Sequence record: MT129654.1 | Origin: Escherichia phage MN04 | Length of the DNA: 64,000 bases | Direction: 5' to 3' (one strand) | Shown: positions 542 through 52,498 of the stretch, piece after piece | Layout of the letters: each line of letters opens with the position of its first letter | How positions within the stretch are numbered: the first letter of the stretch is position 1 | Translations under genes and position numbers: made by a program | Notes under the pieces: generated by a model | Seen by the model: only the letters and a program-made list of their open reading frames with translations | Told to the model about the DNA's origin: nothing | Databases searched by the model: none

Positions 542-1552
542 ATGACCCGTACTGAATACATTAATGCCTTTACTACGTATATCACTGCCAACACCCCTCC
601 ATTAACCCCATATGTGGTAATAGTTTCTAATATCAATAAATGGGTCGACCAAATTGATGATGCATTATCGCGCTGTTTCAAAGCTGAAATCGAAAAGATA
701 GCGGGTCGTTTGTTTATTCCTGATATCGTAGATACATTTAAAGGTTCTCGACTGCTTTCTCGACTGGTCAATAAGGACATCCTTTCTGAGTTCGGTAAAG
801 AGAAATATCCGGGTTCTAGCCATGTTGTTAGCTACAAATGGTTTGGTGATACCATAAAAGATTATGTCAAAATTAAAGGTATGGACCCTAGTAGTTTATT
901 TCCGCAACGTTGGGTTAGCGAATTCAAGGCTAACTCTGCATTAATTCTCAAAGCGGCCTCTAAAACTATAGTTTCCGGTGATTGTCGTACTATTCACCCG
1001 ATGGCTAATTGCATGATTAAAACAAATAGTTATAAAGGAAAAGCTATTATTTCTGTTATTTGGTCACCTAATAGGAAACCTAAAGATGATGCGGAAGTTG
1101 TAAAGTATCAAGATATTGCTTACGATACCTTGAATACTATCGAACAAGCCTTAGCTTTGATGAATACAGTAGAGAAATATGAGACCCAAGAAGTTAAACA
1201 CCACTTAGGCTGGAAAGGATATGAAGTTTTAGTAACAGTTCGCGAAATCAAATACCCTGTTCTAAAAACTGACGCTGAAATTTACCAAGAAAAATGTGAG
1301 GAAATTGTGAATACTGATAAAGAGCCTGCTACATTAGAAGACTTGATTAACGACTTGAACAGCCCTATCATGGCCCATACACCAATTACTAAATCCAAGT
1401 TACCGGAAATCGTTGCCTTAGAAAAAGCGTATAAAGATGCCTTGGCTATTAACAAAAAACTGACTGGCCAATATACTGCTGCCAAGAAACTTTGGGAAGA
1501 GTCTACCAATCGTTTAGACCGTCTTGAACAAGCCCTGGAGCTGTTGAAATGA
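542..1552 (+). CDS. hypothetical early protein (336 aa)
   Basis: Long ORF; start refined to ATG 542, preceded by CTGAGGAGAA SD and a PeSL-like promoter at 484-513. Confidence 0.5.
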   Translation: MTRTEYINAFTTYITANTPPLTPYVVIVSNINKWVDQIDDALSRCFKAEIEKIAGRLFIPDIVDTFKGSRLLSRLVNKDILSEFGKEKYPGSSHVVSYKWFGDTIKDYVKIKGMDPSSLFPQRWVSEFKANSALILKAASKTIVSGDCRTIHPMANCMIKTNSYKGKAIISVIWSPNRKPKDDAEVVKYQDIAYDTLNTIEQALALMNTVEKYETQEVKHHLGWKGYEVLVTVREIKYPVLKTDAEIYQEKCEEIVNTDKEPATLEDLINDLNSPIMAHTPITKSKLPEIVALEKAYKDALAINKKLTGQYTAAKKLWEESTNRLDRLEQALELLK

Positions 1553-1770
1553 AATACCAATTAGCTGACGATATTGACCAAACTATTCCTGATTGGAATG
1601 CTGTTATTAAAATTGTCGAACGCCGTGAAAAAGCTTCTAAGAATGTTCCGAACTGTCCGGAATGTGGTACTGAACAGGTTCAGTTAGTCCAATGGCGACA
1701 TAATCCGCTTCAGTACAAATGCCGACATTGTAAGCACAAATTTGAGCGAGATGAAAATGGCAAAGCGTAA
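1549..1770 (+). CDS. small zinc-ribbon protein (CPECG...CRHCKH)
   Basis: Two CxxC pairs in the translation; start overlaps the upstream stop (ATGA). Confidence 0.45.
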
Positions 1771-1993
1771 AGAATATGTAGAGGCTGCCGATAAGGCAGT
1801 CCGCGAACTCACCGTAGCTTATTATAAAGAGCATGGTAAATTCCCGGACAGTTATTCAGTATTGAAATCTGCTTTAACTCGTTCGTATAATAATATACTA
1901 TCTGATGTGTATGATTTAAAATACGAACACCTAGAAAAATATGGAACGGAACTTGACCGTTCTGAAGCATTCAAACAAGTATTAGGAATTTAA
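1742..1993 (+). CDS. hypothetical protein (83 aa)
   Basis: ORF in the tight gene array; start uncertain. Confidence 0.4.
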
Positions 1994-1994
1994 A

Positions 1995-2258
1995 ATGTTT
2001 AAAGTTTATGGGTATGATTCAAATATTCACCGTTGTGTTTTCTGTGATAATGCTAAACGACTACTTGATGTTAAGAAACAACCTTACGAATTCATTAACG
2101 TGATGCCGGAAAAAGGTGTATTTGATGATGAGAAGATTGCTGAACTCTTGGCTGCACTTGGTCGTGAATCTCAAGTAGGTTTGACTATGCCTCAGGTATT
2201 TGCTCCTGATGGAACTTCTATTGGTGGCTTTGACCAACTGCGAGCATATTTCAAATGA
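1995..2258 (+). CDS. nrdC: NrdC thioredoxin/glutaredoxin
   Basis: 87 aa, MFKVYGYDSNIHRCVFCDNAKRLL... near-identical in pattern to recalled T4 NrdC; CxxC active site. Confidence 0.85.
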   Translation: MFKVYGYDSNIHRCVFCDNAKRLLDVKKQPYEFINVMPEKGVFDDEKIAELLAALGRESQVGLTMPQVFAPDGTSIGGFDQLRAYFK

Positions 2259-2412
2259 TTGAATTATTGTTGGGTGTTTTGTATCTTATCATCGGCATTG
2301 GTTATGCTAAGACTCTAGCTAAATTAGATGATTCCGGTGACTTTTGTTCGTGGCTGACGTCTATGATTTGTTGGCCTTTATTTCTGGTTGGTGCTTCATT
2401 CTGGAACTTTAA

Positions 2413-2601
2413 ATGACTGAATTTGATATGGCTTATGGAACCTGCGCAAGAGAGTTTGCAAGTGAGTTTGATACTCCCGCGCCTAGTAAAGAAACCGTAT
2501 TGGCAAATCTCCCGGATTGGTTAAAAGAAGAAGCCACTGAATGGGGTTGGACTGATACTTGTGTACGTGACCAGCTATTTGAATTTATGGTGGAATTATG
2601 A
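2413..2601 (+). CDS. hypothetical acidic protein (62 aa)
   Basis: ORF, gene packing. Confidence 0.4.
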   Translation: MTEFDMAYGTCAREFASEFDTPAPSKETVLANLPDWLKEEATEWGWTDTCVRDQLFEFMVEL

Positions 2602-2906
2602 TTGAATTAAACGAACAGACCATTTTTCTAGGTGATGGCACCGAAGATGACCTAGAATATAAACTATACGAATATATGGTTTGGTTGGCTAAAGCAGAAG
2701 GTATTGACTTTGTTGTGGCTAATCCGTATGGTGAGAATACTGTTGTAATCGGTGACATTGCTTATGAAGTCCAATGGCAATACGTTGGGCTTGAATCTGA
2801 AGAATTTGAAGAAGATGAACATGGCGATTGGCATCCGGTTGGTCCTTGGTACTGGGACGACGGTGAGCCTGATTTTGAAGTATCAAGCTATTGGAGTGAC
2901 CAATGA
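2598..2906 (+). CDS. hypothetical acidic protein (102 aa)
   Basis: ORF with overlapping stop/start (ATGA). Confidence 0.45.
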   Translation: MIELNEQTIFLGDGTEDDLEYKLYEYMVWLAKAEGIDFVVANPYGENTVVIGDIAYEVQWQYVGLESEEFEEDEHGDWHPVGPWYWDDGEPDFEVSSYWSDQ

Positions 2907-3223
2907 CTATTGAAAATGAATTAGATGTTGATGCTGTTTTAAGCGAAATCATTGAAGACCATGATGCGTTTACTGAATCATACGAGTTTGAATTTTCGGA
3001 CTACCTGGTTCCGGTTGAATTAGGCGAATGGACACAAACCGGCAAATACCAATATCGCCAGGCAATTTATTTCAGCAAAAAACATAATGTGCATGTGGCT
3101 GTAAACGAAACTCGTACCGGCTCTTATCATACCGACTGGGACCATATGGTCCCGACTGTTGAACTGGTTAAGCTCCAAGAACGTGTCGTAACCCAAACTA
3201 TCCGAGAATGGATTACGCTATAA
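2903..3223 (+). CDS. hypothetical protein (106 aa)
   Basis: ORF with overlapping stop/start. Confidence 0.45.
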   Translation: MTIENELDVDAVLSEIIEDHDAFTESYEFEFSDYLVPVELGEWTQTGKYQYRQAIYFSKKHNVHVAVNETRTGSYHTDWDHMVPTVELVKLQERVVTQTIREWITL

Positions 3224-3340
3224 AACCATGGTATACCGCTCGATGGGAAACCGTCGAGCCAGAGGAACCGGTTTACAACGATTCCGAAATAGAGTATAAT
3301 GAACCTTCAAACAATGATTTAATCGATATGGAGTTTGGAT

Positions 3341-3514
3341 ATGAGTACCAAAATTGAAATTGGCCGTCATAAAGGCCGTCTGATTGAACATTCGCTTTAC
3401 GAGTTATCGGATTCAGGTTCTTTACCTGACCTAGAGTCTGATTTGATTAAAGCTGCAGCCGATTATATCCATTGGCTTGAAGCGCAACTCCGCTTTGCTG
3501 ATAAGGCGTTCTGA
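3341..3514 (+). CDS. hypothetical small protein (57 aa)
   Basis: ATG with GGAG upstream; stop overlaps the next start (ATGA). Not in the ORF track (<60 aa). Confidence 0.35.
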   Translation: MSTKIEIGRHKGRLIEHSLYELSDSGSLPDLESDLIKAAADYIHWLEAQLRFADKAF

Positions 3515-3699
3515 TGAAAACTGTATTAGTCTATACTGAAAAGTTAAATGGCGACAAGGTATGGAAACTTCTTATCAAAGGAAGTCCTAATGACCAGTTT
3601 ATGGCTACCTGCGTAGGATTATACACTCGTCCTACCAAAAAGATGATTCGTCAATTTAAACGGTTACACCGTATGTTTTACGGTACATTTGAAAAATAA
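3514..3699 (+). CDS. small basic protein with C-terminal RPTKKMIRQFKR motif
   Basis: Shares the PTK(R/K)xIRQ basic motif with ORFs at 27309 and 28339. Confidence 0.4.
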   Translation: MKTVLVYTEKLNGDKVWKLLIKGSPNDQFMATCVGLYTRPTKKMIRQFKRLHRMFYGTFEK

Positions 3700-3734
3700 T
3701 AAATACCCTTATCTAATAATGGTAAGGGTTTATT

Positions 3735-4208
3735 ATGTTGTTGACCGGCAAATTATACAAAGAAGAAAAACAAAAACTTTATGATGCACAATGTGGTAAG
3801 TGTTTGATTTGTAAACGTGAATTAAACCCTGATGTTCAAAGTAACCACCTTGACCACGACCATGAATTGAGCGGGCCAAAAGCTGGTAAGGTTCGTGGTT
3901 TACTATGTAACCTGTGCAATGCTGCAGAAGGACAAATGAAGCATAAGTTCAACCGTTCTGGTCTTAAAGGTCAAAACGTTGACTACCTCGAATGGTTAGA
4001 GAATTTGCTGGTCTATCTGAAATCTGATTACACTGAAAACAATATCCATCCTAATTTCGTTCCTGATAAAACCAAAGAGTTCAGTAGATTAGGTAAGGAA
4101 GAAATGATTGCTGAAATGCTTTCGCATGGAATGACTTATAATGAATCTGACACAAAGAAACAAATGGTCGATTCATTTAAAAAACAACTGAGGAAATCGC
4201 TTAAATGA
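3735..4208 (+). CDS. 49: recombination endonuclease VII (gp49)
   Basis: 157 aa; MLLTGKLYKEEKQK... and the HLDHDHEL...CNLCN zinc-site segment match recalled T4 endo VII. Confidence 0.9.
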   Translation: MLLTGKLYKEEKQKLYDAQCGKCLICKRELNPDVQSNHLDHDHELSGPKAGKVRGLLCNLCNAAEGQMKHKFNRSGLKGQNVDYLEWLENLLVYLKSDYTENNIHPNFVPDKTKEFSRLGKEEMIAEMLSHGMTYNESDTKKQMVDSFKKQLRKSLK

Positions 4209-4302
4209 TTAATTTTTATGCCTTAACCGAATCTATGAATGATATTATCCGGCGCATGGGTGTTGAGTATCCTGCTCAATGGTTATTTGTTGTAACTAAT
4301 AC

Positions 4303-4530
4303 ATGGACTATCGTATGAATAAATTTCGTAATGCTGCTTCTGATATCCTGGCCAATATTACATTTGTCCTGTTTATTGTGTGCCTTTTAATCCTGGTTAT
4401 CCCATTTGGATTGCTGTTTGTAATGATTGGTGCGCTGAGTACTGAAAAGGGTCTTGAAGGGTCTGAGTTCGAAAAACGAATCCAGGCTGTGCATAGTGTT
4501 ATTGCTAAAATGATGAAGGTGAAAGAATGA
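4303..4530 (+). CDS. small membrane protein (75 aa)
   Basis: Long hydrophobic stretch (FVLFIVCLLILVIPFGLLFVMIGAL). Confidence 0.4.
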   Translation: MDYRMNKFRNAASDILANITFVLFIVCLLILVIPFGLLFVMIGALSTEKGLEGSEFEKRIQAVHSVIAKMMKVKE

Positions 4531-4823
4531 AACGTTTTGAAGAGTATGTAGCTACTGATTGGGCGGCTTGGGACAAGTTTGGCCAAGAATGGTACTTCCA
4601 TGACTGTGACCTGAACCCGGAATTCTTTATCGGTAAGGAAGATGACCTTAAAGATATCTATGCTCTGTCAGAGATTCACGGTATTAAACCTACCGTCTAC
4701 TTCTCTTTTGATGATATGGGATTCCTTATCCAGATTTACATCCCGTATGGAACTAATGAAGACGAAGTTATCAAAACTTGGGACTACCAAGGAGTTATTT
4801 CCTGTGGACCAAAAGTTAACTAA
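4527..4823 (+). CDS. hypothetical protein (98 aa)
   Basis: ORF with overlapping start. Confidence 0.45.
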   Translation: MKRFEEYVATDWAAWDKFGQEWYFHDCDLNPEFFIGKEDDLKDIYALSEIHGIKPTVYFSFDDMGFLIQIYIPYGTNEDEVIKTWDYQGVISCGPKVN

Positions 4824-5121
4824 AATTGAGATTTATGGTATCCCTGAGACAGTCATGCGCTGTCCAGGGTGCATTGCAGTTCTATCGCTCCTAAATTCCC
4901 TTTCTATCCCACATACTTTCTATCCTGTGATTAACCAGACGCCGTCAGGCGCAGTATATGACAAGCCTCTTATAGTATCATTGGCCAAACGTGCTGGCTT
5001 CAAGAGCTTAGCTATACGCTATCCTGTAATCTTTGTTGATAATAAGAAAATAGAAAATATTCCTGCCTTCAAATCCCTTTTGATTGAGCTTGGCTATGAC
5101 CGAGATTTAATTGAAGATTAG
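4804..5121 (+). CDS. glutaredoxin-like CxxC protein (possible NrdH-like); start uncertain
   Basis: IEIYG-x7-RCPGC looks like a glutaredoxin beta1-CxxC; the only in-frame ATG upstream (4642) overlaps the neighbour, so GTG 4804 is proposed. Confidence 0.4.
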   Translation: MDQKLTKIEIYGIPETVMRCPGCIAVLSLLNSLSIPHTFYPVINQTPSGAVYDKPLIVSLAKRAGFKSLAIRYPVIFVDNKKIENIPAFKSLLIELGYDRDLIED

Positions 5122-5171
5122 TATTTACTTCCTCTCCTCATGTGTTATAGTCTATCCTATCAACACATGAG
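5122..5171 (+). promoter_or_regulatory. PeSL-like element with an 11-bp stem that includes the SD
   Basis: TATTTAC...TATAGT, plus inverted repeat CCTCATGTGTT / AACACATGAGG. Confidence 0.45.
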
Positions 5172-5180
5172 GAGAACATT

Positions 5181-5363
5181 ATGACCATCCAAGATAAAGA
5201 AATTAAAGCCGACCAGTATTATTTGGTAAATGGACGTGCGGTTCGTGTAATTGCTGCTAGTGATTCAGACGTATGGTATCGTGTACTAGACCATAAAAAT
5301 ATTCCATTGATGGTATGTGACGGTAGCTTGTTTTGTTCGATAGCTAAGGAAATTAAATTATGA
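5181..5363 (+). CDS. hypothetical protein (60 aa)
   Basis: ORF following a PeSL-like element whose stem contains the SD. Confidence 0.4.
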   Translation: MTIQDKEIKADQYYLVNGRAVRVIAASDSDVWYRVLDHKNIPLMVCDGSLFCSIAKEIKL

Positions 5364-5614
5364 GCCTGAAATTACATTCAATGAAAAATGTCATCACCCT
5401 TAATCTTGATGATGAGCGCCTGATTTTTCTCACCGTCACTGATAAGAATATTGAAATTGCAAATGGTCCTAAGACTTATTGCTGCCCAGTGAAGAATTGG
5501 AAGCATGTAACCTTTTTGACCCTGGCCGACCGTCTGAAAGACCTTAAGTTGGATTTGGATATCAAAGATATCCAGTACATTAAAAATCTTATTGGATACA
5601 AACTGTTGAGGTAA
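5360..5614 (+). CDS. hypothetical protein (84 aa)
   Basis: ORF, overlapping start. Confidence 0.4.
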   Translation: MSLKLHSMKNVITLNLDDERLIFLTVTDKNIEIANGPKTYCCPVKNWKHVTFLTLADRLKDLKLDLDIKDIQYIKNLIGYKLLR

Positions 5615-6912: not shown

Positions 6913-7172
6913 AACCCATATCCACCACCCTCGCTTATGAAGGTCTCGGATTTTTCTTAATAGATAACTGTATGGATGTTGAGTTTGTTTGTGGTGAGAC
7001 TTCTTTAGTATGGAAGTCTCATATTTCCAAATACAACCATCGGGATTATCCGGAACTTTTTAAAGAATTTTGCGGATATATGTCCGAACATGGATGTACT
7101 GATACAATTTCTTATCCCGAGTTCATACAAATCCTTGAAACAGTATTTCAGGCTTATTGCTTACTCCGTTGA
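6909..7172 (+). CDS. hypothetical protein (87 aa)
   Basis: ORF, overlapping start. Confidence 0.45.
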   Translation: MKPISTTLAYEGLGFFLIDNCMDVEFVCGETSLVWKSHISKYNHRDYPELFKEFCGYMSEHGCTDTISYPEFIQILETVFQAYCLLR

Positions 7173-7238
7173 TGCTTTAAACGGGTCTCCAAATACTATG
7201 ATATAATAGACCTATGATTTGAGTTATCTGAGGTAACA

Positions 7239-7796
7239 ATGACCGAAATTAAACTGACTAAAAATAACTATGTAAATAATAAGGAGCTTCTGAAAGCCAT
7301 TACCCAGTGGAAAACGGAACTCCGAGAAAATACCGACCCTAATAAAATAGTTCGTCAGAACGACGTTATCGGCTTGGCTATTATGCTCATTGCTGAAGGC
7401 CTTTCTAAGCGTTTCAACTTCTCCGGATATACCCAATCTTGGAAGCAAGAAATGATTGCTGATGGAATCGAAGCCTCTATTAAAGGTCTTCATAACTTCG
7501 ACGAAACAAAATACGACAACCCACATGCATATATCACTATGGCTTGTTTTAATGCCTTTGTTCAGCGTATCAAGAAAGAACGTAAAGAAATGGCAAAGAA
7601 ATACAGCTACTTCGTCCATAACGTTTATGACGCCAATGACGACGACATGGTAGGTATCGCAGATGAAACTTTTATCCAGGATATTTACGACAAAATGACT
7701 CAGTATGAAACCTCTTTAGTTAAAGCGCCAGGGTCTGATAAGAGCGCTGAATCTAAAGTTGGTGAGCTGGATTTTTTATATGGAACTCAAGATTAA
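7239..7796 (+). CDS. 55: late-transcription sigma factor gp55
   Basis: 185 aa; [55 protein letters not shown] matches recalled T4 gp55. Confidence 0.9.
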
Positions 7797-8007
7797 CCTG
7801 GTAGGCCTTTTAGAAGAAGTAGATGGAGAGTATTCGGCAATTCCTTATGTTCTTAAAATGTATCTTAAGGATATTGCCAAGCTTCCTATTGTAATAGACC
7901 CAAAACACCCTGATTCGGTAGAAATTAAAGCTGAAAAAGGAACATTAACTTATAACTATCACGTTACCGACGAAGATTTTTATATAAAACTGAATTACAA
8001 GGATTAA
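7780..8007 (+). CDS. hypothetical protein (75 aa)
   Basis: ORF overlapping the 3' end of gene 55; start uncertain. Confidence 0.35.
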
Positions 8008-8008
8008 T

Positions 8009-8320
8009 ATGCAAAGCCATGACATTTCTCAATTGACTGATGAGCAAATTGAAGAAGCCCAGCAACGTTTAGAAGAGCACAATATTAAAGAAGCCAATTC
8101 GCAAGCGGCTAAGATTCTTAAGAAGAATGCTCGTGAAATCCGTCGTTTAAATCTCCATGCCCAAGGCGCTGTACTTGAAAACAACTTTGAAGCATATAAG
8201 TACGCTTTAATTAAATTACGCGGTATTTACCGTCAACCTGTTACTGATGAACTTGTTCAATTGATGTGGGAATCTACCCGCAAACAAATTTGGGAAATCG
8301 TCAATGGCTCTAGTAAATAA
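8009..8320 (+). CDS. hypothetical protein (103 aa)
   Basis: ORF, gene packing. Confidence 0.45.
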   Translation: MQSHDISQLTDEQIEEAQQRLEEHNIKEANSQAAKILKKNAREIRRLNLHAQGAVLENNFEAYKYALIKLRGIYRQPVTDELVQLMWESTRKQIWEIVNGSSK

Positions 8321-8592
8321 ACCCTTTAAACGGCTTCTTATTGGAGCCGCCTTCAGACTTCGCTCATACGGTAATATTTGTATTAAGCAGACCGAAACCG
8401 AATATAAAATGGTTGGGCAGTATTCCGATGAAATTTTTCGGATTGAGCCTGTAGCCAAGGTTTGGGTGGATTCACATCAACTTAAGAAGTGGTGGCAACG
8501 ATGATAACATGGACAGGTGGCTAATGAAAGACGAACATCCGGATTTTTAAGCTATGAATGACGAATACGAAAAAGTTTAAGAGGTTTTATGA

Positions 8593-8766
8593 ATGACGAA
8601 TTCGATGGATTTTGATAAGATTAAATCTGACAAAAATGAGATGATACTTAAATTTGAAGCTGCTCGTATTAAAGCGGAAAATGAAGGTATTATTACCTAT
8701 AAGCCTATCAAGTTCAGGTCTTCTCATGAACCTCTGTATGGTGTATTAATTGGTAAAGGAGCTTAG
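8593..8766 (+). CDS. hypothetical small protein (57 aa)
   Basis: ATG with GAGG upstream; ends at the terminator hairpin. Confidence 0.3.
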   Translation: MTNSMDFDKIKSDKNEMILKFEAARIKAENEGIITYKPIKFRSSHEPLYGVLIGKGA

Positions 8767-8778
8767 GCTCCTTTTTTG
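8757..8778 (+). terminator. intrinsic terminator
   Basis: GGAGCTTAGGCTCC hairpin followed by TTTTTT. Confidence 0.6.
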
Positions 8779-8800
8779 CTTTATATTCGGATGATAAAAT
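8777..8800 (+). promoter_or_regulatory. middle promoter candidate (MotA box + -10)
   Basis: TGCTTTA, 11-nt spacer, TAAAAT, upstream of the 47/46 unit. Confidence 0.45.
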
Positions 8801-8820
8801 GAACCAACTGAGGAGAACAT

Positions 8821-8964
8821 ATGGAATTACTTTTAGGATATGTCGTGTTATTCATGGCATTCTACACATTCACACGAGCCTGTTGGATAGGATTCTTTTC
8901 TACTCCTGATGGGTTCATCTCAATAATTTTATTTTGCATTGCGATAACGGTGCTCGGCTTATGA
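8821..8964 (+). CDS. small hydrophobic protein (47 aa)
   Basis: CTGAGGAGAACAT-ATG TIR; predicted TM peptide; stop overlaps the gene 47 start (ATGA). Confidence 0.35.
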   Translation: MELLLGYVVLFMAFYTFTRACWIGFFSTPDGFISIILFCIAITVLGL

Positions 8965-9983
8965 AAATATTAAACACAGGTGACTGGCACCTTGGAGTGA
9001 AGGCTGATGATGTGTGGGTACAAAATATCCAACGTCAAGGTATCCAAGACGCTATCAATTATTCTAAAGCAAATGGTATTACCGTGTGGATTCAATACGG
9101 TGATATCTTTGACGTTCGTAAAGCAATTACTCATAAGTGTATGGAATTCGCTCGCGAAATCTCTGATTTGCTTAAAGCTAATGGCATTACCATGTATACC
9201 ATTGTTGGTAATCATGATATGCACTACAAAAACACCCTAACTCCTAACGCTGCTTCTGAAGTTCTCGGTAAATACGACCATATCAAGGTTATTGAGAAAC
9301 CTACTACGGTTAACTTTGATGGCACCGAAATTGATTTGATTCCATGGATATGTGAAGAAAACACGACTGATATCATGGACCATATCAAAAATACCACAGC
9401 AGATTTCTGTATTGGACATTGGGAATTAAATGGTTTCTATTTCTATAAAGGAATGAAATCTCATGGTTTAGAACCTGATTTCCTTAAAAAGTATAAGCAA
9501 GTTTGGTCAGGCCACTTCCACACTATTTCTGATGCAGCAAACGTCAAGTACATTGGTACTCCATGGACCCTGACTGCAGGTGATGAGAACGACCCTCGTG
9601 GTTTCTGGATTTTCGATACCGAAACTCATAAAATGGATTTCATCATTAATGAAACCTGTTGGCATCGTAAGATTCATTATCCTAATGCGACTATCGATTA
9701 CAAAGATTTTACAAATATCGCAGTTCGTGTTATAGTCGATAAAATCGATGACGGCCTTACTAAGTTCGAATCAGAGCTTGAAAAGGTTGTTCACTCTTTA
9801 CGTATTGTGTCTAAGGTAGATAATAGTGTTGATATCGATGATTCTGAAGAGGAAGATGAAGTTAAATCCCTCTTGGATATGATGTATGATTATATCGACG
9901 CCCTTCCTGATGGCCACACTGAAGAAGACGTTAAAGCCCTTAAGACTATGGCCGCACAACTTTATAATGAGGTTACACGATGA
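8961..9983 (+). CDS. 47: recombination endonuclease subunit gp47 (Mre11-like)
   Basis: MKILNTGDWHLGVKADD..., GDIFDVRKAITHK, GNHDMHYKN metallophosphoesterase motifs; matches recalled T4 gp47. Start refined from the track's 8934. Confidence 0.9.
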   Translation: MKILNTGDWHLGVKADDVWVQNIQRQGIQDAINYSKANGITVWIQYGDIFDVRKAITHKCMEFAREISDLLKANGITMYTIVGNHDMHYKNTLTPNAASEVLGKYDHIKVIEKPTTVNFDGTEIDLIPWICEENTTDIMDHIKNTTADFCIGHWELNGFYFYKGMKSHGLEPDFLKKYKQVWSGHFHTISDAANVKYIGTPWTLTAGDENDPRGFWIFDTETHKMDFIINETCWHRKIHYPNATIDYKDFTNIAVRVIVDKIDDGLTKFESELEKVVHSLRIVSKVDNSVDIDDSEEEDEVKSLLDMMYDYIDALPDGHTEEDVKALKTMAAQLYNEVTR

Positions 9984-10243
9984 CTTTAGATGAATTCAAA
10001 AAATCGGGACTTGAACTGGAACACGACTGTATAGTTATTGACGATGATGGGCAACCTAGTACAATTAAGTTCTGGTTTGAAGCCGTGAGCACTCGTGATA
10101 CCGGCGAGCTTATTAAAGTTTATGTTGCTACCGATTGGGCTGTAGAATTTAGCTTTAATGTAATGGTAGATGATACTCCAGAAACATTAATTCATATGGC
10201 TGAATCATGCATCAAGGATGCTTATAACGATGAAGACTTTTAA
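9980..10243 (+). CDS. hypothetical protein (87 aa)
   Basis: ORF between 47 and 46; overlaps both neighbours slightly. Confidence 0.45.
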   Translation: MTLDEFKKSGLELEHDCIVIDDDGQPSTIKFWFEAVSTRDTGELIKVYVATDWAVEFSFNVMVDDTPETLIHMAESCIKDAYNDEDF

Positions 10244-11912
10244 GTTAAAAAAAGTAACGTATAAAAATATTATGTCGGTAGGGCAGCAGCCCATTACAAT
10301 CCAACTTGACAAGGTCCAAAAGACCTTAGTCACTGGTAAAAATGGTGCAGGGAAATCAACATTCCTTGAAGCTGTAACATTTGCTCTGTTCGGTAAGCCT
10401 TTTCGTGATGTTAAGAAAGGGCAGTTGATTAACTCAAGTAACAAGAAAGACCTTTTGGTCGAACTGTGGATGGAATATGATGGCAAAGAATACTATATCA
10501 AACGCGGGCAAAAACCCAACGTTTTTGAAATCTCTTGTGACGGTGAACGTCTTGATGAATCTGCCAGCAGTAAAGACTTCCAAGCGGAATTTGAACAGCT
10601 TATCGGAATGTCCTATGCAAGCTTCAAACAAATTGTCGTACTCGGCACAGCTGGATATACCCCTTTTATGGGCCTATCCACTCCTGCAAGAAGAAAACTC
10701 GTCGAAGACCTGTTAGAGGTTTCTGTATTAGCGGATATGGATAAGTTGAACAAATCTTTAATTCGTGAGACTAATAGCCAAATCCAAGTAATAGACGTTA
10801 AGCAAGATTCTATTACCCAACAAATTAAAATTTATAATGACAACGAAGAACGTCAACGTAAATTATCCGGCGAGAACGCCGCCCGCCTACAATTAATGTA
10901 TGATGAGCTCGTTAAAGAAGCCAGGACTGCGAAGGCGAGCATAGAATCCCTGACTGATGAATTACTCAATGTTATCGTAGATGATGACCCTAGCGACTCC
11001 ATGAGTGACCTGAGTAATAAAGGATTTGCAATCAAAAATGATATGGCAACCTTTACAAAGGTGGTTAAGTTATACGAAACTGGTGGTCACTGCCCTACGT
11101 GTATGCAAGGGTTAGAAGAGCACGGTAATATCCTTACTAAAATTAAGGATAAAAACTTTGAGCTTCAAAAATCTTTGGATAAGATTAATGAGCAATACCA
11201 AGAACTCAAGCTCATTAAGGACCAAGTAACCGAACAACGCAATAAAGCGTTGGCTATTAAATCTCAGATAGCTACTCATAAGCAGCAAGCCATTACTGCT
11301 GTAGAGAAAGCCAAAAAGGTTAAGGTATTAATTGACCAAGCGGCAGCTGAGTTCGTAAGTAATGCCGAAGAGATTGCTGTGCTTCAAGCAGAGCTTGATA
11401 AAATCGTCTCTACCAAATCGTCCTTGGTAATGGAAAAATATCATCGTGGAATTCTGACAGAAATGTTGAAGGATACTGGTATTAAAGGTTCCATTATTAA
11501 GAAATACATTCCTATCTTTAATAAGCAGATTAATTCTTATTTGAAGATTATGGAAGCGGACTACGTCTTTACCTTAGACGAAGAATTCAACGAGACGATT
11601 AAATCACGTGGACGTGAAGACTTTAGTTATGCTTCATTTTCACAGGGTGAGAAAGCACGTATTGATATCGCACTTCTTTTTACATGGCGTGATATTGCTT
11701 CTAAGGTATCAGGTGTTAATATCAGCACGTTAATTCTTGATGAAGTTTTTGATAGTGCCACGGATTCTGAAGGCGTTAAGAGCATTGCAACCATCTTGAA
11801 TAGCCTTGAGGATACGAACGTGTTCATTATCTCTCACCGAGACCATGACCCACAAGCTTATGGCCAACATCTTCAAATGAAGAAAGTTGGGCGATTCACG
11901 GTGTTAGAATGA
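10230..11912 (+). CDS. 46: recombination endonuclease subunit gp46 (Rad50/SbcC-like ATPase)
   Basis: Walker A GKNGAGKST, coiled-coil middle with CPTC zinc hook, C-terminal LDEVFDSATD signature; matches recalled T4 gp46. Confidence 0.9.
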   Translation: MKTFKLKKVTYKNIMSVGQQPITIQLDKVQKTLVTGKNGAGKSTFLEAVTFALFGKPFRDVKKGQLINSSNKKDLLVELWMEYDGKEYYIKRGQKPNVFEISCDGERLDESASSKDFQAEFEQLIGMSYASFKQIVVLGTAGYTPFMGLSTPARRKLVEDLLEVSVLADMDKLNKSLIRETNSQIQVIDVKQDSITQQIKIYNDNEERQRKLSGENAARLQLMYDELVKEARTAKASIESLTDELLNVIVDDDPSDSMSDLSNKGFAIKNDMATFTKVVKLYETGGHCPTCMQGLEEHGNILTKIKDKNFELQKSLDKINEQYQELKLIKDQVTEQRNKALAIKSQIATHKQQAITAVEKAKKVKVLIDQAAAEFVSNAEEIAVLQAELDKIVSTKSSLVMEKYHRGILTEMLKDTGIKGSIIKKYIPIFNKQINSYLKIMEADYVFTLDEEFNETIKSRGREDFSYASFSQGEKARIDIALLFTWRDIASKVSGVNISTLILDEVFDSATDSEGVKSIATILNSLEDTNVFIISHRDHDPQAYGQHLQMKKVGRFTVLE

Positions 11913-18703: not shown

Positions 18704-19204
18704 ATGAAAAAGTTAATTATCGCAATGAGTATGCTCCTATCAGGTTGCGCAGTCCAATACGGTGATGCAGTTTCGGCTGATGAAGTTGGTAAAGCTCGTA
18801 TCGCAGCTGAACAGAAACAATTCGACGGCGAAATGAAATTCCGTGCCGGTTCTGGACTTGTGTATACCCGAGCTAATAATCAATGTGGTAATAACTGTGC
18901 AAAATATGCTCAAAGGGAAATCGAATTCCAACGTGAACAAGAGTCTAAGCGTGAAGCGGTACTAGCCAAACACCAGGCAGAAATGAAGCGCCAAGATGAT
19001 TTGTACAAAAAGCAGAAACTGTATTCTATGTGTGTAAACCATATCAATTTACAGATTTCTGTCCATGAGGCTCGTTATTACGAAATGCTCGAAACCGAGA
19101 GCTTCGATAAGGCTCGTGATTATAAGAAACAAATCAACAAGCTTAAGACCAAAGTGCCTGCTGCAGTAGAACAGTGCATGGAATACGGTAAAGATAAGAT
19201 TTAA
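18704..19204 (+). CDS. putative lipoprotein (166 aa)
   Basis: Signal peptide with lipobox LLSGC. Confidence 0.5.
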   Translation: MKKLIIAMSMLLSGCAVQYGDAVSADEVGKARIAAEQKQFDGEMKFRAGSGLVYTRANNQCGNNCAKYAQREIEFQREQESKREAVLAKHQAEMKRQDDLYKKQKLYSMCVNHINLQISVHEARYYEMLETESFDKARDYKKQINKLKTKVPAAVEQCMEYGKDKI

Positions 19205-19264
19205 GCAATAGAAATTTATTAAAAATAGTGTATAATGTACCTACATTCACTTGAGGAACAGATA

Positions 19265-20938
19265 ATGAAAAAGGTTGTTATTTTAGGCGCAGGTCTTGGC
19301 TCACGGTTGTATCCAATTACTAACGAAATCCCGAAGGTATTGGTTAACTATAAACAACATACGGTATTAAAGCATTTGTATGATTTGTATAGTAACCAAT
19401 CAGATGAAATTATTCTGGTTATTCACAGCAAATTTAACGACCTCGTTAAAGGCTATATTAAATCCATTAACATGATTACTGGTGATAAGCCTAAATTCAC
19501 TATTCGTAACGTTGATGTTGCTAATGGTTCAGCTCATGCTATCGATTGCATTGCCGAAGATATCATTGGCCATAACGTCCTGTTTAACTGGTGTGACATC
19601 ATTCCTGAAGGTCATAAAGTTGAGTGGGGTAACGACTACTGTTATACCTATGGAACTGACTGTCGTTTTACATTTGAAGAACCGTACTTACGTGAAATTG
19701 GCACTGGTGGTGGCGTAGTTGGTTTATATCAGGTGGCTAATTGGACAGGTTTCGACCGTTCTAATTACGGTGAAGACCTTGCTGATAACCTGGATTCAAT
19801 GGTCTATTTGACTGAACGTAAACTGGACTTTGTAGTTGATGTCGGTGACAAATTGAAACTGGCTAAGGCCCATGAAGATTCTGAAATTAACCGTGAATTT
19901 AATAAATTAGAATTCACCGAGAATCTGGCTATTAAAGTACCAACTAACGAATTAGGTAAAGAAATTCAATCTAAAGAAATCAATTGGTATAATTCTATTG
20001 ATTCTGAATTCGTTCCTAGCATTGTAGACTTTTCTCCAGGCGAATTCATTAAAATGGAACGTATCTTTGGTCGGACCATGGCAGATGCCTACCGGTTTAT
20101 GTCCAAAGAAACTAAAGTCCTCATGGTTTATAAGGTCATTAGTGCATTACGTTCATTCGGTGGAACTATTGATAATCCGTCCGATGAACAATGGTATTCC
20201 GATGTTAAGAAAGAAGTATTGGACAAGGTCCTTATTCGTAATGCTTCTATTGCCGGATTGATTGAAGGCTTTGCTCCACAAGGCATTACCCATGTTAACG
20301 ATTTCAAAGTAGGCGACCCTGAAAAACTTCTCCGCCATGCACTAGAAATTCTGTCTGAACATAAAGAACCGTACCAACTTATTCATGGCGACCCACACTA
20401 CAGTAATATTATGCTGTCGGACGAAGGTGATATTAAAATCATCGACCCACGTGGTTATTTCGGTAATAGTTCTAAAGGCCCTGCGATTTATGATGAAGCT
20501 AAGGTGCTTTATTCTATCGATGGCTATGACAAATTTAACTCAGACCCTCTATGGGGTGGATTAACCCGTAACGGAACTCGTGTATTCGTTGATATTGAAA
20601 AGGTTATGCCTTTAGACGATATCCCTATGTGCACATTTAAGCACAAGCTCTGGATTGCTGTTATTTGGATGGCTCTGGCAGGTTACTTTAAGAATAACCC
20701 TCTGAAAGCTCTGGGTGCTTATTATAACGGTTTGTACCAACTGAGTGTGCTGCTGAAGCGGCATCCTCGTAAGCGTAAGCTTATTACAGGTGAATTTGTC
20801 GATGAAGTTCGTGACCCTATCACGGCCCAAATTATTACTCGTTGTCCTGATAAGTGGGTTTTGCTTGACCAGGAAACTGGTGTAAAATATAAACCTACAG
20901 GTTCTACTGAACTCCACAAACAATGGAAGAAAATTTAA
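19265..20938 (+). CDS. bifunctional nucleotidyltransferase / APH-choline-kinase-like kinase fusion
   Basis: N-terminal ILGAGLGSRLYPIT (sugar-1-P/LicC-type nucleotidyltransferase G-x-G-x-R motif); C-terminal LIHGDPHYSNIM...IIDPRGYFG (Brenner kinase motif plus metal-binding DxG). Function inferred from motifs only. Confidence 0.6.
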   Translation: MKKVVILGAGLGSRLYPITNEIPKVLVNYKQHTVLKHLYDLYSNQSDEIILVIHSKFNDLVKGYIKSINMITGDKPKFTIRNVDVANGSAHAIDCIAEDIIGHNVLFNWCDIIPEGHKVEWGNDYCYTYGTDCRFTFEEPYLREIGTGGGVVGLYQVANWTGFDRSNYGEDLADNLDSMVYLTERKLDFVVDVGDKLKLAKAHEDSEINREFNKLEFTENLAIKVPTNELGKEIQSKEINWYNSIDSEFVPSIVDFSPGEFIKMERIFGRTMADAYRFMSKETKVLMVYKVISALRSFGGTIDNPSDEQWYSDVKKEVLDKVLIRNASIAGLIEGFAPQGITHVNDFKVGDPEKLLRHALEILSEHKEPYQLIHGDPHYSNIMLSDEGDIKIIDPRGYFGNSSKGPAIYDEAKVLYSIDGYDKFNSDPLWGGLTRNGTRVFVDIEKVMPLDDIPMCTFKHKLWIAVIWMALAGYFKNNPLKALGAYYNGLYQLSVLLKRHPRKRKLITGEFVDEVRDPITAQIITRCPDKWVLLDQETGVKYKPTGSTELHKQWKKI

Positions 20939-21321
20939 TGTCGCATCGAGTAGAAAATAAGCCACATTTATGTTTTGATATCGATAACACAATCACGATT
21001 TGGAACCATGACCGTGATTATGAGAACTTTAAACCGGACACCGAAATGGTGTCCATGATTAATAAGCTTTATGATGAAGGGTACGAGATTACATTGTTCA
21101 CCGCGCGTGGCATGACTTCATGTGGCCCAGGTCGAATCTTGGTTGAAGTAGTTCCTGCATTGGTTAAGAACCTTGAAAAGATTGGATTGAAATATCATAA
21201 TCTGCTTACACATAAGCCGAGTTATACTTTTATCATCGATGACCGAGCAATCCGTCCCGACCACTTTAAAGAAATGGTTCGTGAAGGAACTCTTGATAGT
21301 TATAAGGCCTATCATCCATGA
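20938..21321 (+). CDS. HAD-superfamily phosphatase-like protein
   Basis: LCFDIDNTIT (HAD motif I DxDxT) and TLFTARG; small KdsC-sized protein. Confidence 0.5.
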   Translation: MSHRVENKPHLCFDIDNTITIWNHDRDYENFKPDTEMVSMINKLYDEGYEITLFTARGMTSCGPGRILVEVVPALVKNLEKIGLKYHNLLTHKPSYTFIIDDRAIRPDHFKEMVREGTLDSYKAYHP

Positions 21322-21854
21322 ATCCAAAAATCATTGTTATAGACGGCCCGGATAATTCCGGGAAGTCCACTTTAATTAAAAATCTGTTATCCAATAAGAA
21401 ATACCGCCTTATTGATTTTCCTAAAAAGATTAATGGTAAGTGTATTTCATTAGGAACTGATAACGATAAGGCTTTAGTTGAAACTCTGTATAAGTTTTTA
21501 GACCCTAATTTCGTTTATATCCTTGACCGTGGTTATCCAAGTAATATTGTTTACTCAGGATTCCTTCGTGGTGAAATGGACCCTTATGTAGAACTGGAAG
21601 ATTGGAAAGGGTTTAAATCTGAATTTAACGTTATCGAGGTTATTTTAACTCGCAATCCATTAGACGAAGACTTCGAAGACGACCTTATTAAATTAACCAA
21701 AGATGAGTTCAACCTAACTATCCGGCAATACGAAACATGTTTTGAAAACGTGTTTAAAATCTTAAATCATGACGGCCATAATAATTTGCTTAATGTTGAT
21801 ATGGTAGAATTAAAACGTCTGAACGAATATATTGAAAATAAGGTGAATAGATGA
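21318..21854 (+). CDS. P-loop small-molecule/nucleotide kinase-like protein
   Basis: Walker A IVIDGPDNSGKSTL at the N-terminus; 178 aa. Confidence 0.5.
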   Translation: MNPKIIVIDGPDNSGKSTLIKNLLSNKKYRLIDFPKKINGKCISLGTDNDKALVETLYKFLDPNFVYILDRGYPSNIVYSGFLRGEMDPYVELEDWKGFKSEFNVIEVILTRNPLDEDFEDDLIKLTKDEFNLTIRQYETCFENVFKILNHDGHNNLLNVDMVELKRLNEYIENKVNR

Positions 21855-22549
21855 AACACATTACCGCTGTTAGTTTTGAAAATGCATTTAAACAAATGAA
21901 CGAAGAAATCCTGGAAGCTCCACAGTTTGCAGTTGATTCTCGTATCGGACGTTGTTATGAAATTGGTTCTGCTTCGGTAGAAGTACTGGATGCAAGCACC
22001 TATAAATTCACCGATCCTCGTATTAATCGTATTAGTTATGAATATGCCGAATCTTTCTGGAAGTTTATGATTTCTGGTGGTACTGACGCCGCCGAAGCAT
22101 TTAAGGAATACCCTAATGTTGCTAAGTTCATTGATAAGCCGAAAAGTGACGTATTGCCTGCAAACTTCAACACTTTCTATGGACCTCGAATTGTGGCCCA
22201 ACTCCCAGCCTTACTTAAAGAGCTTAAAGAAAAGCCTAACTCAAGACGCGTTGTGTTCCAGATTCTCCAAGAACAAGACCAAGCCCTCCTTGATTCTGAC
22301 GAATCCTTAGAATATCCTTGCACCGATTCGGTAACGTATTATATTCGTGATGGACGTCTGTATGCACACACTCATATGCGTTCACAGAACTGTGCTATTG
22401 TTATGCAGCTGGATTTCTATCTGCAGGGTAAACTGATGGCATTTATTGCTGAACAGTGCGGTGTCGGTTTAGGTACATATTCCCACACCATGGTAAGTGC
22501 ACACGTGTTTGAACGTGATTTTGACTACGTCCGAGGTTTCCTGAAATGA
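21851..22549 (+). CDS. 42: thymidylate-synthase-family pyrimidine hydroxymethylase (divergent dCMP hydroxymethylase, gp42 position)
   Basis: NSRR and CTDSVTYYIRDGRL...MRSQN align to the catalytic-Cys region of recalled T4 gp42, at lower identity than the neighbouring core genes. Confidence 0.6.
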   Translation: MKHITAVSFENAFKQMNEEILEAPQFAVDSRIGRCYEIGSASVEVLDASTYKFTDPRINRISYEYAESFWKFMISGGTDAAEAFKEYPNVAKFIDKPKSDVLPANFNTFYGPRIVAQLPALLKELKEKPNSRRVVFQILQEQDQALLDSDESLEYPCTDSVTYYIRDGRLYAHTHMRSQNCAIVMQLDFYLQGKLMAFIAEQCGVGLGTYSHTMVSAHVFERDFDYVRGFLK

Positions 22550-23439
22550 GTTTGTTTATCGTTCCTATTTTCAGTATGCGTAGTTACGAAACAGGTGAAT
22601 ATGCCGTCCTTAAGGACGGCAATTTTCAACTCCATTTAAATCGTGCTCGTCCAGGTGATTATCTGGCTTATCCTAGAAATTCGAGCGATATCAAAGAATG
22701 CATTGAATTATTCCCAGATCTGAATTTCGTACCACTTTGGTATAAAGAAAATGCTTATGAAACCCGTAAACATTTCTGGTCTGAAAATGAGTTTGTAGTC
22801 GATTCACTAATCGAATACTACGATTGCTCAGGACTGGTAACCGATATCACTGGTTACGATGGTGCTCATACTGTACAATTCAACTTTAATATCACAATGG
22901 ACCCTGAAGTTCCTCGTTATTATATCGACGAGTTCATTGATATTGATGTGGCTTCAGTTGAACGTTCACTTTATACTACAGTCCTGAATCAATGCCAGAA
23001 AGACGTCTTGGTGTCACGAGGTGCATCCTCTGATAAGATTTTTGTAGACCAAAAGGTAATTAATCCTGCAGTAATTGAGCGTTACTCTGAAGGTCTAGCG
23101 CCTATTAAAATTGATGGTATTTTCCATCCATTCCGTATTTCAGATAAGTGTTATCAATTCGAAAGAGTTGTAGACCAAGCTGCCGCTGAAGGTGCTCGTC
23201 TTTATATCACCGATCCGAATGATTCATTTAAGCGCGAAGACTATCGTCCTGATGTAGAGATTATTAAATTCAAACCAAGTAAGGTTGAATATTATCAAAT
23301 TCTGAAATCAAGACCACATATCATTTATCATGAGAACCCAGGTTTAGTATTCCATCCTGGTCTGGCTGAATTCATTTATTTCGGTGCCAATATTCATTCT
23401 GAATACGAAATGCCACGTTATGAGGACGTAGTATGCTAG
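22546..23439 (+). CDS. hypothetical protein; candidate DNA glycosyl/modification transferase (occupies the T4 beta-gt position)
   Basis: 297-aa ORF between the gp42-like gene and uvsX; functional call is by synteny only, no recognised motif. Confidence 0.35.
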   Translation: MSLFIVPIFSMRSYETGEYAVLKDGNFQLHLNRARPGDYLAYPRNSSDIKECIELFPDLNFVPLWYKENAYETRKHFWSENEFVVDSLIEYYDCSGLVTDITGYDGAHTVQFNFNITMDPEVPRYYIDEFIDIDVASVERSLYTTVLNQCQKDVLVSRGASSDKIFVDQKVINPAVIERYSEGLAPIKIDGIFHPFRISDKCYQFERVVDQAAAEGARLYITDPNDSFKREDYRPDVEIIKFKPSKVEYYQILKSRPHIIYHENPGLVFHPGLAEFIYFGANIHSEYEMPRYEDVVC

Positions 23440-35119: not shown

Positions 35120-35419
35120 GTGATGTACTATGCATACGTATTAGTTCACAAGGACAAAGATGGGTATGAAATTCCATTAGAAGATGCCGGTGAAGTGACT
35201 TTGTATTCGACAAAGATTGGAGCCGACACTGCTTTAGAGGCTTATGAAATCTCAACAAAAAGATATCTTCGGCTTGGACGCCTTGAAACAGTGTGCACGC
35301 CAAGAAAGTGGTGGTTTGATAAGTGGGAAACTAAAACGGTTTTTCCTACCAAAGAACGGGCCCGAGAATTAAAATTGATTTTAGACACTTTATATGTTAA
35401 GCGAGTAAAATTGGCATGA
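35120..35419 (+). CDS. hypothetical protein (99 aa)
   Basis: ORF immediately upstream of dda. Confidence 0.45.
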   Translation: MMYYAYVLVHKDKDGYEIPLEDAGEVTLYSTKIGADTALEAYEISTKRYLRLGRLETVCTPRKWWFDKWETKTVFPTKERARELKLILDTLYVKRVKLA

Positions 35420-36747
35420 TTACATTTGAAGACTTGAATATTGGGCAACGGACGGCCTTTAAAGAAATCATTGAAGCTATTAAACGACGTAAGGGCGAAT
35501 GGATTACATTGAATGGTCCTGCTGGTACAGGTAAAACGACCCTTACTAAATTTATCCTTGACCACTTAGTCAAGAATGGCGAACTCGGAGTTATTTTGAC
35601 CGCACCTACACACGCGGCCAAGAAGGTATTGTCGAAACTCGCAGGCCAAGAAGCATCGACAATCCACCGAATCTTAAAGATTAACCCGACTACATACGAA
35701 GACCAGGATATTTTTGAACAACGTGAAGCTCCTGACTTGAGCAAATGTAATGTTCTTGTGGTCGACGAAGGCTCAATGATTGACGGTAAGTTGTTTAAGA
35801 TTATCGAAGCTTCAGTTCCGCCATGGTGCACTGTACTGGGGATTGGCGACCGAGCTCAGTTACAACCTGTAGAACCAGGAAGTGATGGAAGTCCTCAGTT
35901 GTCTCCATTCTTTACCCATCCTAAAATTAAACAGCTACACCTTACTGAAGTAATGCGTAGTAATGCTCCTATCATTGAGGTTGCTACTGAAATCCGTAAT
36001 GGTGGATGGTTCCGAGATTGTATATTCGAAGGTCACGGTGTCCATGGTTTTAAATCTCAAACGGCTTTAAAAGATTTTATGATGAATTATTTTTCCATCG
36101 TAAAAGATGCTGATGCCTTGTTTGAGAACAGGATGTTTGCTTATACAAATAAATCAGTTGAAAAACTGAATAGCATTATTCGTAAAAAGCTTTATGAAAC
36201 CGATACGCCTTATATCAAGGGCGAAATCCTCGTGATGCAAGAGCCTTTTATTAAGGAACTTGAATACGACGGTAAGAAATTCTCTGAAACCATTTTTAAT
36301 AACGGCCAGATGGTTCGTATTTTAGATGTGAACCACACCTCATTGTTCTTGTCTGCCAAGGATGTAGGCACTCGCCAGATGATTAATTACTGGGACCTCC
36401 AGGTTGAATCTGTTGATGAGGATGACGAGTACTATGTAGAACACTTGAAAGTTATTGATGAGGCTTCAGTTGAGAAGTTCCATTATTTCTTGGCTAAGGT
36501 GGCTACTGAGTACAAGGCTATGCGTGGAACAGGTAAGAAACCTAAGTGGGCTGATTTCTGGAAAGCTAAGAGAATGTTCACTAAGGTTCGAGCTCTTCCG
36601 GTGAGCACTGTCCATAAATCACAGGGTCTTACTGTCCAAAACAGTTTCATCTATACTCCGTGCATGCACATGGCAGATGCCAATTTAGCTTCACAGCTGG
36701 CTTATGTTAGTATTACCCGTGCTCGCACTGATGCCTATTATGTTTGA
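35416..36747 (+). CDS. dda: Dda DNA helicase (SF1B)
   Basis: 443 aa; Walker A GPAGTGKTT and VLVVDEGSM; matches recalled T4 Dda. Confidence 0.9.
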   Translation: MITFEDLNIGQRTAFKEIIEAIKRRKGEWITLNGPAGTGKTTLTKFILDHLVKNGELGVILTAPTHAAKKVLSKLAGQEASTIHRILKINPTTYEDQDIFEQREAPDLSKCNVLVVDEGSMIDGKLFKIIEASVPPWCTVLGIGDRAQLQPVEPGSDGSPQLSPFFTHPKIKQLHLTEVMRSNAPIIEVATEIRNGGWFRDCIFEGHGVHGFKSQTALKDFMMNYFSIVKDADALFENRMFAYTNKSVEKLNSIIRKKLYETDTPYIKGEILVMQEPFIKELEYDGKKFSETIFNNGQMVRILDVNHTSLFLSAKDVGTRQMINYWDLQVESVDEDDEYYVEHLKVIDEASVEKFHYFLAKVATEYKAMRGTGKKPKWADFWKAKRMFTKVRALPVSTVHKSQGLTVQNSFIYTPCMHMADANLASQLAYVSITRARTDAYYV

Positions 36748-51515: not shown

Positions 51516-51743
51516 ATGAAATTTAAAATCGAAAACGAAATCGTTAAAGCTAAAAATGCTCTGACTGCTAACAAACTGGTTGTAGATGGTATTGAATATG
51601 ATATCTGTGGAGTTCGTGAAGAAAAACCCGGTGTTCTGACTTTCTTCACAATGATTTTTAAATTTAAAGGTGACACAGAATTCAAACAGTTTGATTTTGC
51701 CCCTGAAGACGAAATCGAAGTTCGTAATCTGAACATTAAGTAA
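51516..51743 (+). CDS. hypothetical protein (75 aa), flanked by duplicated PeSL-like elements
   Basis: ORF with GGAG SD between two near-identical ~60-bp cassettes. Confidence 0.45.
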   Translation: MKFKIENEIVKAKNALTANKLVVDGIEYDICGVREEKPGVLTFFTMIFKFKGDTEFKQFDFAPEDEIEVRNLNIK

Positions 51744-52484: not shown

Positions 52485-52498
52485 CTGAGGAAATTATT

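Follow-up and report, generated by a model that had tools for sequence, protein, structure and literature searches.

In phage T4, the canonical DNA glucosylation system comprises gp42, a dCMP hydroxymethylase, and the glucosyltransferases a-gt and b-gt, for which hydroxymethylcytosine is the substrate. The T4 gene order around a-gt is 55, a-gt.5, a-gt.4, a-gt.3, a-gt.2, mobB, a-gt, 47.1 and 47, with mobB, which encodes a homing endonuclease, and a-gt filling the ~2.1 kb between a-gt.2 and 47.1. A second type of modification has been described for RB69 (Mosigvirus; genes gp45–gp55 and gp3; Thomas 2018, Lee et al. 2026). The arabinosylation genes of this type were proposed in 2018, and the chemistry was revised in 2025–2026 to arabinosyl-5-hydroxycytosine. 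RB69 DNA is fully arabinosylated, with a mixture of mono- and di-arabinosylation. In Lee et al. (2026), RB69 gp48 is reported to make 5-hydroxy-dCMP, the D169N substitution is common to every homologue that the authors verified as a 5-hydroxy-dCMP synthase, and Dhakaviruses are named as phages that possess the arabinosylation cluster. The Afh pathway of phage HY126 (He et al., as outlined in PMC13326640; PDB codes 9iqc, 9iqu, 9iqw and 9iqz) is closely comparable to the genes described below. Shewanella phage Thanatos, a distant member of Straboviridae with another host, carries a single arabinosyltransferase, which is syntenic with the RB69 gp46:47 type, and is mono-arabinosylated; among published cases, it sets the precedent that one arabinose goes with a single transferase. 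JS98 and RB69 lack glucosyltransferase genes, according to Petrov et al. (2010).

The DNA analyzed here is a stretch of 64,000 nucleotides (the window) from the ~171-kb genome of Escherichia phage MN04 (MT129654.1). Comparison with database genomes identifies it as part of a T4-like phage of the JS98 type (Dhakavirus). Along its entire length, the region 7000–10300 shows 97% identity to UP19, JS98, JS10 and IME281, which are all Escherichia phages of the genus Dhakavirus. The JS98 genome and the whole window are collinear; in JS98 coordinates, the window starts at ~45.7 kb, descends via rIIA and, having wrapped round, finishes among the tail-fibre genes. Identity is ~97–98% in the replication and modification module and falls to 71–85% in the tail-fibre region. 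Apart from this diverged tail-fibre module, the differences are trivial and consist of the absence of gp46.1 from the window and a few small indels. The complete JS98 genome (170,523 bp) was assembled and searched together with the window, and genome-wide statements rest on JS98 as a proxy for the ~107 kb of MN04 that lie outside the window.

The initial annotation had placed a-gt between genes 47 and 55 in T4, which agrees with the T4 gene order, and had claimed that the same interval here holds no gene of a-gt size, only open reading frames (ORFs) of 75, 103, 66, 57 and 47 residues. The two flanking genes are indeed 55 and 47, and ORFs of exactly these sizes are found at 7780–8964 (Table 1). 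The interval (7797–8960) is 1164 bp long, compared to 1203 bp for the coding sequence of T4 a-gt; five small genes take up 1021 of the 1164 bp, and the longest stop-free stretch across the six frames is 108 codons. Therefore, a gene the size of a-gt is physically impossible in this interval, and the scan of all six frames also disposes of the concern that such a gene had been overlooked in a mis-read frame.

Table 1. Features of the gp55–gp47 interval and of the modification cassette in the MN04 window.
Feature	Coordinates	Strand	Evidence
Gene 55, late sigma factor (left border)	7239..7796	+	78% identity to T4 gp55; PHROG_234 late sigma factor, E = 3e-68
a-gt.5 homologue, 75 aa, small conserved early gene	7780..8007	+	51% identity to T4 a-gt.5, E = 2e-17; PHROG_1169, E = 5e-29; annotated a-gt.5 in JS98
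a-gt.4 homologue, 103 aa	8009..8320	+	41% identity to T4 a-gt.4, E = 4e-20; PHROG_951, E = 1e-39
a-gt.3 homologue, 66 aa	8304..8504	+	45% identity to T4 a-gt.3, E = 6e-14; PHROG_1648, E = 6e-29
Non-coding gap, 88 bp, between a-gt.3 and a-gt.2	8505..8592	+	tblastn alignment and translation
a-gt.2 homologue, 57 aa	8593..8766	+	45% identity to T4 a-gt.2, E = 4e-17; PHROG_2140, E = 7e-31
Empty a-gt slot, 54-bp a-gt.2/47.1 junction	8767..8820	.	T4 gene order; JS98 and RB69 junctions also empty
47.1 homologue, 47 aa, predicted membrane protein	8821..8964	+	80% identity to T4 gp47.1, E = 1e-20; PHROG_6693
Gene 47, SbcD-like nuclease subunit (right border)	8961..9983	+	71% identity to T4 gp47; PHROG_100, E = 2e-135
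Bifunctional sugar kinase/nucleotidyltransferase, 567 aa (RB69 gp52:53 / HY126 AfhE type), predicted to make UDP-arabinofuranose	19235..20938	+	Pfam domains; identity to RB69
HAD-type sugar phosphatase, 132 aa (RB69 gp51 / HY126 AfhF type)	20923..21321	+	62% identity to RB69 ORF051c; PDB 9iqw, E = 5e-54
Thymidylate-kinase-like nucleotide kinase, 178 aa (RB69 gp45 type)	21318..21854	+	38% identity to RB69 ORF045c, E = 2e-30; PHROG_761 thymidylate kinase
ThyA-family enzyme in gene-42 position, 232 aa, predicted flavin-dependent 5-hydroxy-dCMP synthase	21851..22549	+	Identity to RB69 gp48; residue signature; PDB matches
GT-B glycosyltransferase, 297 aa, predicted first DNA arabinosyltransferase (RB69 gp46:47 / DLP3 gp79 type)	22546..23439	+	68% identity to RB69 transferase

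By homology, the five small ORFs are the conserved T4 genes a-gt.5, a-gt.4, a-gt.3, a-gt.2 and 47.1 and not filler. Since they are the genes that neighbour a-gt in T4, the slot itself is cleanly empty: the interval in T4 measures 3152 bp and contains mobB and a-gt in addition, and the stretch that these two genes occupy corresponds to 54 bp in the window. The a-gt.2/47.1 junction is likewise empty in RB69 and JS98. The locus in JS98, JS10 and UP19 shares 97% DNA identity and the order 55, a-gt.5, a-gt.4, a-gt.3, a-gt.2, 47.1, 47 with the window. In the distant Klebsiella phage Roth51, exactly this slot is filled by an a-gt that is 66% identical to that of T4. The gp55–gp47 interval thus represents the unoccupied form of the conserved T4-type a-gt slot, as is normal for JS98-type phages. 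The start of the a-gt.5 homologue can be read in two ways, with an upstream TTG giving 82 residues and the ATG at 7780 giving 75 residues, as in the JS98 annotation.

Neither of the two non-coding gaps, of 88 and 54 bp, yielded a remnant of an a-gt pseudogene on inspection. The 88-bp gap instead contains, in frame, what is left of the ancestral N-terminus of a-gt.2 (MKDEHP, 8524–8541), revealed by tblastn and translation, which is followed by an insert of ~54 bp that carries three stop codons and a direct repeat of 13 bp (ATGAATGACGAAT, copies at 8554 and 8589). A terminator-like hairpin (8755–8774) overlaps the start of the 54-bp junction.

The region at 19.2–23.4 kb, which had been proposed to be an alternative modification cassette, is a gene-for-gene homologue of the RB69 and HY126 clusters for cytosine arabinosylation. 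It consists of five overlapping or abutting genes, and the same five-gene cassette is found in JS98 (orf38–orf42), between imm and uvsX. The first gene encodes the bifunctional architecture of AfhE, with Pfam matches to NTP_transferase (residues 13–110) and an APH kinase (residues 356–427), and is 44% identical to RB69 ORF053c and 41% to ORF052c, two pieces of a single gene that a sequencing error divides in the RB69 record. Its start is placed 30 nt further downstream, at 19265, in the JS98 annotation. A role of AfhE-type enzymes in UDP-arabinofuranose synthesis is described for HY126 and RB69 in PMC13326640. The nucleotide kinase gene occupies a different place in the cluster than in RB69, and a lipoprotein-like ORF stands at the position of RB69 gp55, the arabinose-5-phosphate isomerase. 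No homologue of gp55, gp50, gp49 or gp3 (the second arabinosyltransferase) of RB69 was found in the window or in JS98, nor did a second or third arabinosyltransferase of the DLP3 gp76-77 / RB69 gp3 type match either of them. The gp39–rIIA interval, which is the site of gp3 in RB69, was considered as a location for a second arabinosyltransferase and rejected, as it contains only ORFs of up to 107 residues. Every large candidate among the other uncharacterised ORFs has a homologue in T4, so that none of them is peculiar to phages that arabinosylate their DNA.

The ThyA homologue in the gene-42 position resembles RB69 gp48 (80% identity) far more than T4 gp42 (25% identity), and its best PDB matches are 9iqu and 9iqc (E = 2e-126), as against 8e-6 for T4 gp42 (1b49). 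It shares L143E, C146, D169N and N177D (E. coli ThyA numbering) with RB69 gp48, whereas T4 gp42 keeps D169. When the window protein is aligned with E. coli ThyA, T4 gp42 and RB69 gp48, its corresponding segment reads RSQN...QLD, like that of RB69, and that of T4 reads RSND...RND. PMC13326640 gives D169N, together with N177D, as the mark of 5-hydroxy-dCMP synthases. An assignment of this protein as an ordinary gene 42 product (dCMP hydroxymethylase) was rejected on the grounds of both the identities and the D169N signature. Thus, the modified base is most likely 5-hydroxycytosine and not 5-hydroxymethylcytosine.

The 297-residue ORF lies directly downstream of the ThyA homologue and overlaps it, which is the position of b-gt in T4. 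Structure prediction, and no other method, revealed a GT-B fold with high confidence, and the Foldseek results are concordant. The initial annotation had stated that no b-gt is recognizable; this holds at the sequence level, but the b-gt slot is not empty, since a compact GT-B enzyme that cannot be recognized from sequence is located there. The arrangement follows the T4 scaffold, with a ThyA-family enzyme at gene 42, a GT-B DNA glycosyltransferase just downstream, and the a-gt.x genes and 47.1 conserved. The family of the 297-residue protein is found in 352 phage records and, among the matches listed, adjoins the ThyA homologue. A profile of this (Aat1) family identifies exactly one member per genome. 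We predict that the protein acts as the first DNA arabinosyltransferase.

These features point to the following pathway. The gp56 dCTPase, located at ~30.2–30.8 kb of the window by collinearity with JS98, would supply dCMP, which the ThyA homologue would convert to 5-hydroxy-dCMP. Kinases would raise this product to the triphosphate for incorporation by the phage DNA polymerase. In parallel, the AfhE-like kinase/nucleotidyltransferase and the AfhF-like phosphatase would convert arabinose-5-phosphate to UDP-arabinofuranose, and the single 297-residue GT-B enzyme would then attach one arabinose to the 5-hydroxyl group. As the phage isomerase is absent, arabinose-5-phosphate would have to come from the host. 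E. coli makes its own arabinose-5-phosphate in the Kdo pathway (KdsD/GutQ), so a phage isomerase is dispensable. Since a second transferase of the RB69 gp3 type is missing, one arabinose is expected, unlike the mixture of mono- and di-arabinosylation in RB69. We consider the explanation as a whole highly probable, namely that the slot free of a-gt and mobB belongs to a phage in which cytosine is replaced by arabinosylated 5-hydroxycytosine, with one arabinose added by a single GT-B enzyme. The analysis demonstrates the lack of a-gt and b-gt, the homology of every cassette protein, the D169N signature and the GT-B fold; which sugar is attached, its addition once and not twice, and the supply of arabinose-5-phosphate by the host are inferred. 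MN04 DNA is accordingly predicted to contain mono-arabinosylated 5-hydroxycytosine. Searches of the literature that could be queried yielded no chemical data on the DNA of any Dhakavirus.

The sugar might be other than arabinose, or a longer chain might be built by an unrecognized second transferase, so that the chemistry would resemble neither T4 nor RB69. The AfhE-like enzyme and the nucleotide kinase are only 41–44% and 38% identical to those of RB69, and the sugar specificity could differ; four RB69 genes (gp55, gp50, gp49 and gp3) have no counterpart in the window or JS98. The related 5-hydroxy-dCMP system of Rhizobium phage RL38J1 attaches galactose and glucose, and divergent GT-B enzymes are invisible to Pfam, which matched neither RB69 gp3 nor the 297-residue protein. 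However, RB69 has close relatives of the phosphatase (62%), the ThyA homologue (80%) and the transferase (68%), and the host Kdo pathway removes the need for a phage isomerase. The single Aat1-family member per genome argues against a second transferase, and Thanatos, with one such transferase, is mono-arabinosylated. Such a departure from the RB69 chemistry is therefore regarded as unlikely. For JS98-type phages in general, it is unlikely that a non-arabinose sugar is attached or that the cytosine adduct otherwise differs from those of RB69, DLP3 and Thanatos.

In another rival reading, cytosine is hydroxymethylated or hydroxylated and left without a sugar, and the cassette is put to a different use, for instance in the metabolism of nucleotides or of cell-envelope sugars. 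Non-glycosylated cytosine was left open for JS98 and RB69 by Petrov et al. (2010), the label given to the phosphatase homologue by its PDB depositors is 'capsule biosynthesis protein', and activity in vitro of the first transferase type (RB69 gp46:47 / DLP3 gp79) is undemonstrated even in the reference phages. Nevertheless, this reading is very improbable, given that RB69, with the same core genes, has fully arabinosylated DNA, that a high-confidence GT-B protein lies directly downstream of the ThyA homologue and overlaps it, and that this protein family recurs beside the ThyA homologue among the matches listed from its 352 phage records.

The canonical enzymes were also sought beyond the interval. 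In tblastn searches of the window and the complete JS98 genome, the best E-value was 0.1 for T4 a-gt and 1.4 for T4 b-gt. Unfiltered phmmer with both proteins gave a best E-value of 0.15 overall and 0.75 for b-gt in the same two sequences; the set used for phmmer and hmmsearch comprised 1104 stop-to-stop ORFs of at least 60 residues. A relocation of a-gt or b-gt to another site was rejected for JS98 on the basis of these whole-genome searches by tblastn, phmmer and hmmsearch. A profile search for glucosyltransferases had been suggested along with the initial annotation. The Pfam families PF11440 (AGT) and PF09198 recovered their positive controls (T4 a-gt at 3e-260 and T4 b-gt at 9e-98, respectively), and no glycosyltransferase family matched the large JS98 ORFs without known function. 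In the phage collection, 657 records contain a-gt (phages of T-even type together with some Klebsiella phages) and 126 contain b-gt; there are no JS98-like phages among the a-gt or b-gt matches listed. The proposal that the canonical glucosylation system is absent is thus upheld for the window and, with JS98 as the proxy, for the rest of the genome. That glucosylation is not really absent, with an a-gt or b-gt homologue lying outside the window, is extremely improbable, because although the window covers 64 kb of a ~171-kb genome, both genes are widespread in other Straboviridae and modules are exchanged among T4-like genomes, JS98 is collinear and ~97–98% identical in the relevant modules and yields no match, and hydroxymethylcytosine is probably not made, given the 5-hydroxy signature of the ThyA homologue.

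The observation that the glucosyltransferases are missing is correct, as is its reading in terms of a replacement cassette, and the literature already contains both. The absence of glucosyltransferases from JS98-type phages has been on record since 2007–2010, and the arabinosyl-5-hydroxycytosine pathway was worked out in 2018–2026. The window adds only one more JS98-like isolate, and its significance is small beyond correct annotation: the 'gene 42' homologue should be annotated as a 5-hydroxy-dCMP synthase instead of a dCMP hydroxymethylase, and the 'hypothetical protein' downstream of it as a DNA glycosyltransferase. Compared with the known clusters, the JS98-type cassette is, in terms of its recognizable genes, the most reduced version, with one GT-B enzyme, no isomerase, and no counterparts of gp50, gp49 and gp3. 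As Thanatos also has a single transferase, the second and third transferases are an optional feature of the cluster family. The DNA chemistry of this reduced, single-transferase cassette is a modest question. The predicted mono-arabinosylated cytosine would affect which restriction, CRISPR and type IV defences the phage evades or triggers, which is relevant to therapeutic use.

Outside the tail-fibre/adhesin region, the window is 91–98% identical to JS98, a closely related coliphage. Identity falls to only 71–85% within that region (gp38 and distal gp37), which also contains two segments with no alignment to JS98; given this difference in identity, the region is probably a host-range module swap. 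Small indels also separate the window from JS98: approximately 317 bp of the window have no counterpart in JS98, and JS98 orf77 is absent from the window. In addition, gp46.1 lies between 46.2 and 46 in JS98 and is missing from the window, where the start of gene 46 falls within the end of 46.2.

Coordinates of the features compared between the window and related phages
Feature	Window	Other phage
Segment without JS98 counterpart	2903–3219	
orf77		JS98 42197–42490
a-gt.3/a-gt.2 gap (88 bp)	8505–8592	
13-bp direct repeat, two copies	8554; 8589	
Terminator-like hairpin	8755–8774	
46.2/46 boundary	10218–10243	
gp46.1		JS98 35279–35482
166-aa ORF	18704–19204	
Thymidylate-kinase-like gene	21318–21854	RB69 (L003) 8903–9451
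Divided genes 053c/052c; 047c/046c		RB69 (L003) 3718–5404; 8001–8901
Tail-fibre/adhesin region	51700–57900	
Segments without JS98 alignment	56211–56787; 57203–57872	
a-gt slot region		Roth51 (L010) 1359–5290

The five-gene cassette predicted to direct cytosine arabinosylation differs from the homologous RB69 cluster (record AY303349.1; L003) in gene order. The thymidylate-kinase-like gene is flanked in the window by the phosphatase and ThyA homologue genes, whereas in RB69 it is located downstream of the transferase. Two RB69 cassette genes are divided in the GenBank record (053c/052c and 047c/046c), but their counterparts are single intact ORFs in both the window and JS98, which agrees with published statements that the splits are RB69 sequencing errors. 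Between imm and the cassette, at the place held in RB69 by an arabinose-5-phosphate isomerase, the window carries a lipoprotein-like 166-aa ORF with a lipoprotein-type signal (MKKLIIAMSMLLSGC) containing a lipobox. This ORF matches PHROG_1754, a family of unknown function, and its JS98 counterpart is orf43.

In the gap between a-gt.3 and a-gt.2, the in-frame residues MKDEHP, which match VKDEHP of T4, are a relic of the N-terminus of an ancestral a-gt.2. The relic is separated from the present a-gt.2 start codon by an insert of approximately 54 bp that includes a 13-bp direct repeat (ATGAATGACGAAT) as well as three stop codons. The window a-gt.2 seems to have gained a new start following a small duplication or insertion.

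A terminator-like hairpin, with an 8-bp stem that includes four G-C pairs and is followed by a T-run, is located precisely at the a-gt.2/47.1 junction of the window, the slot where T4 has mobB and a-gt. In Klebsiella phage Roth51 (locus L010), a distant a-gt homologue (66% identical) occupies the same slot, in the order sigma factor, four small ORFs, a-gt and gp47, and this region contains neither a homing endonuclease nor an annotated 47.1. The equivalent position of a-gt in Roth51 indicates that the slot is conserved across genera. Whether it is filled or empty follows the modification type.
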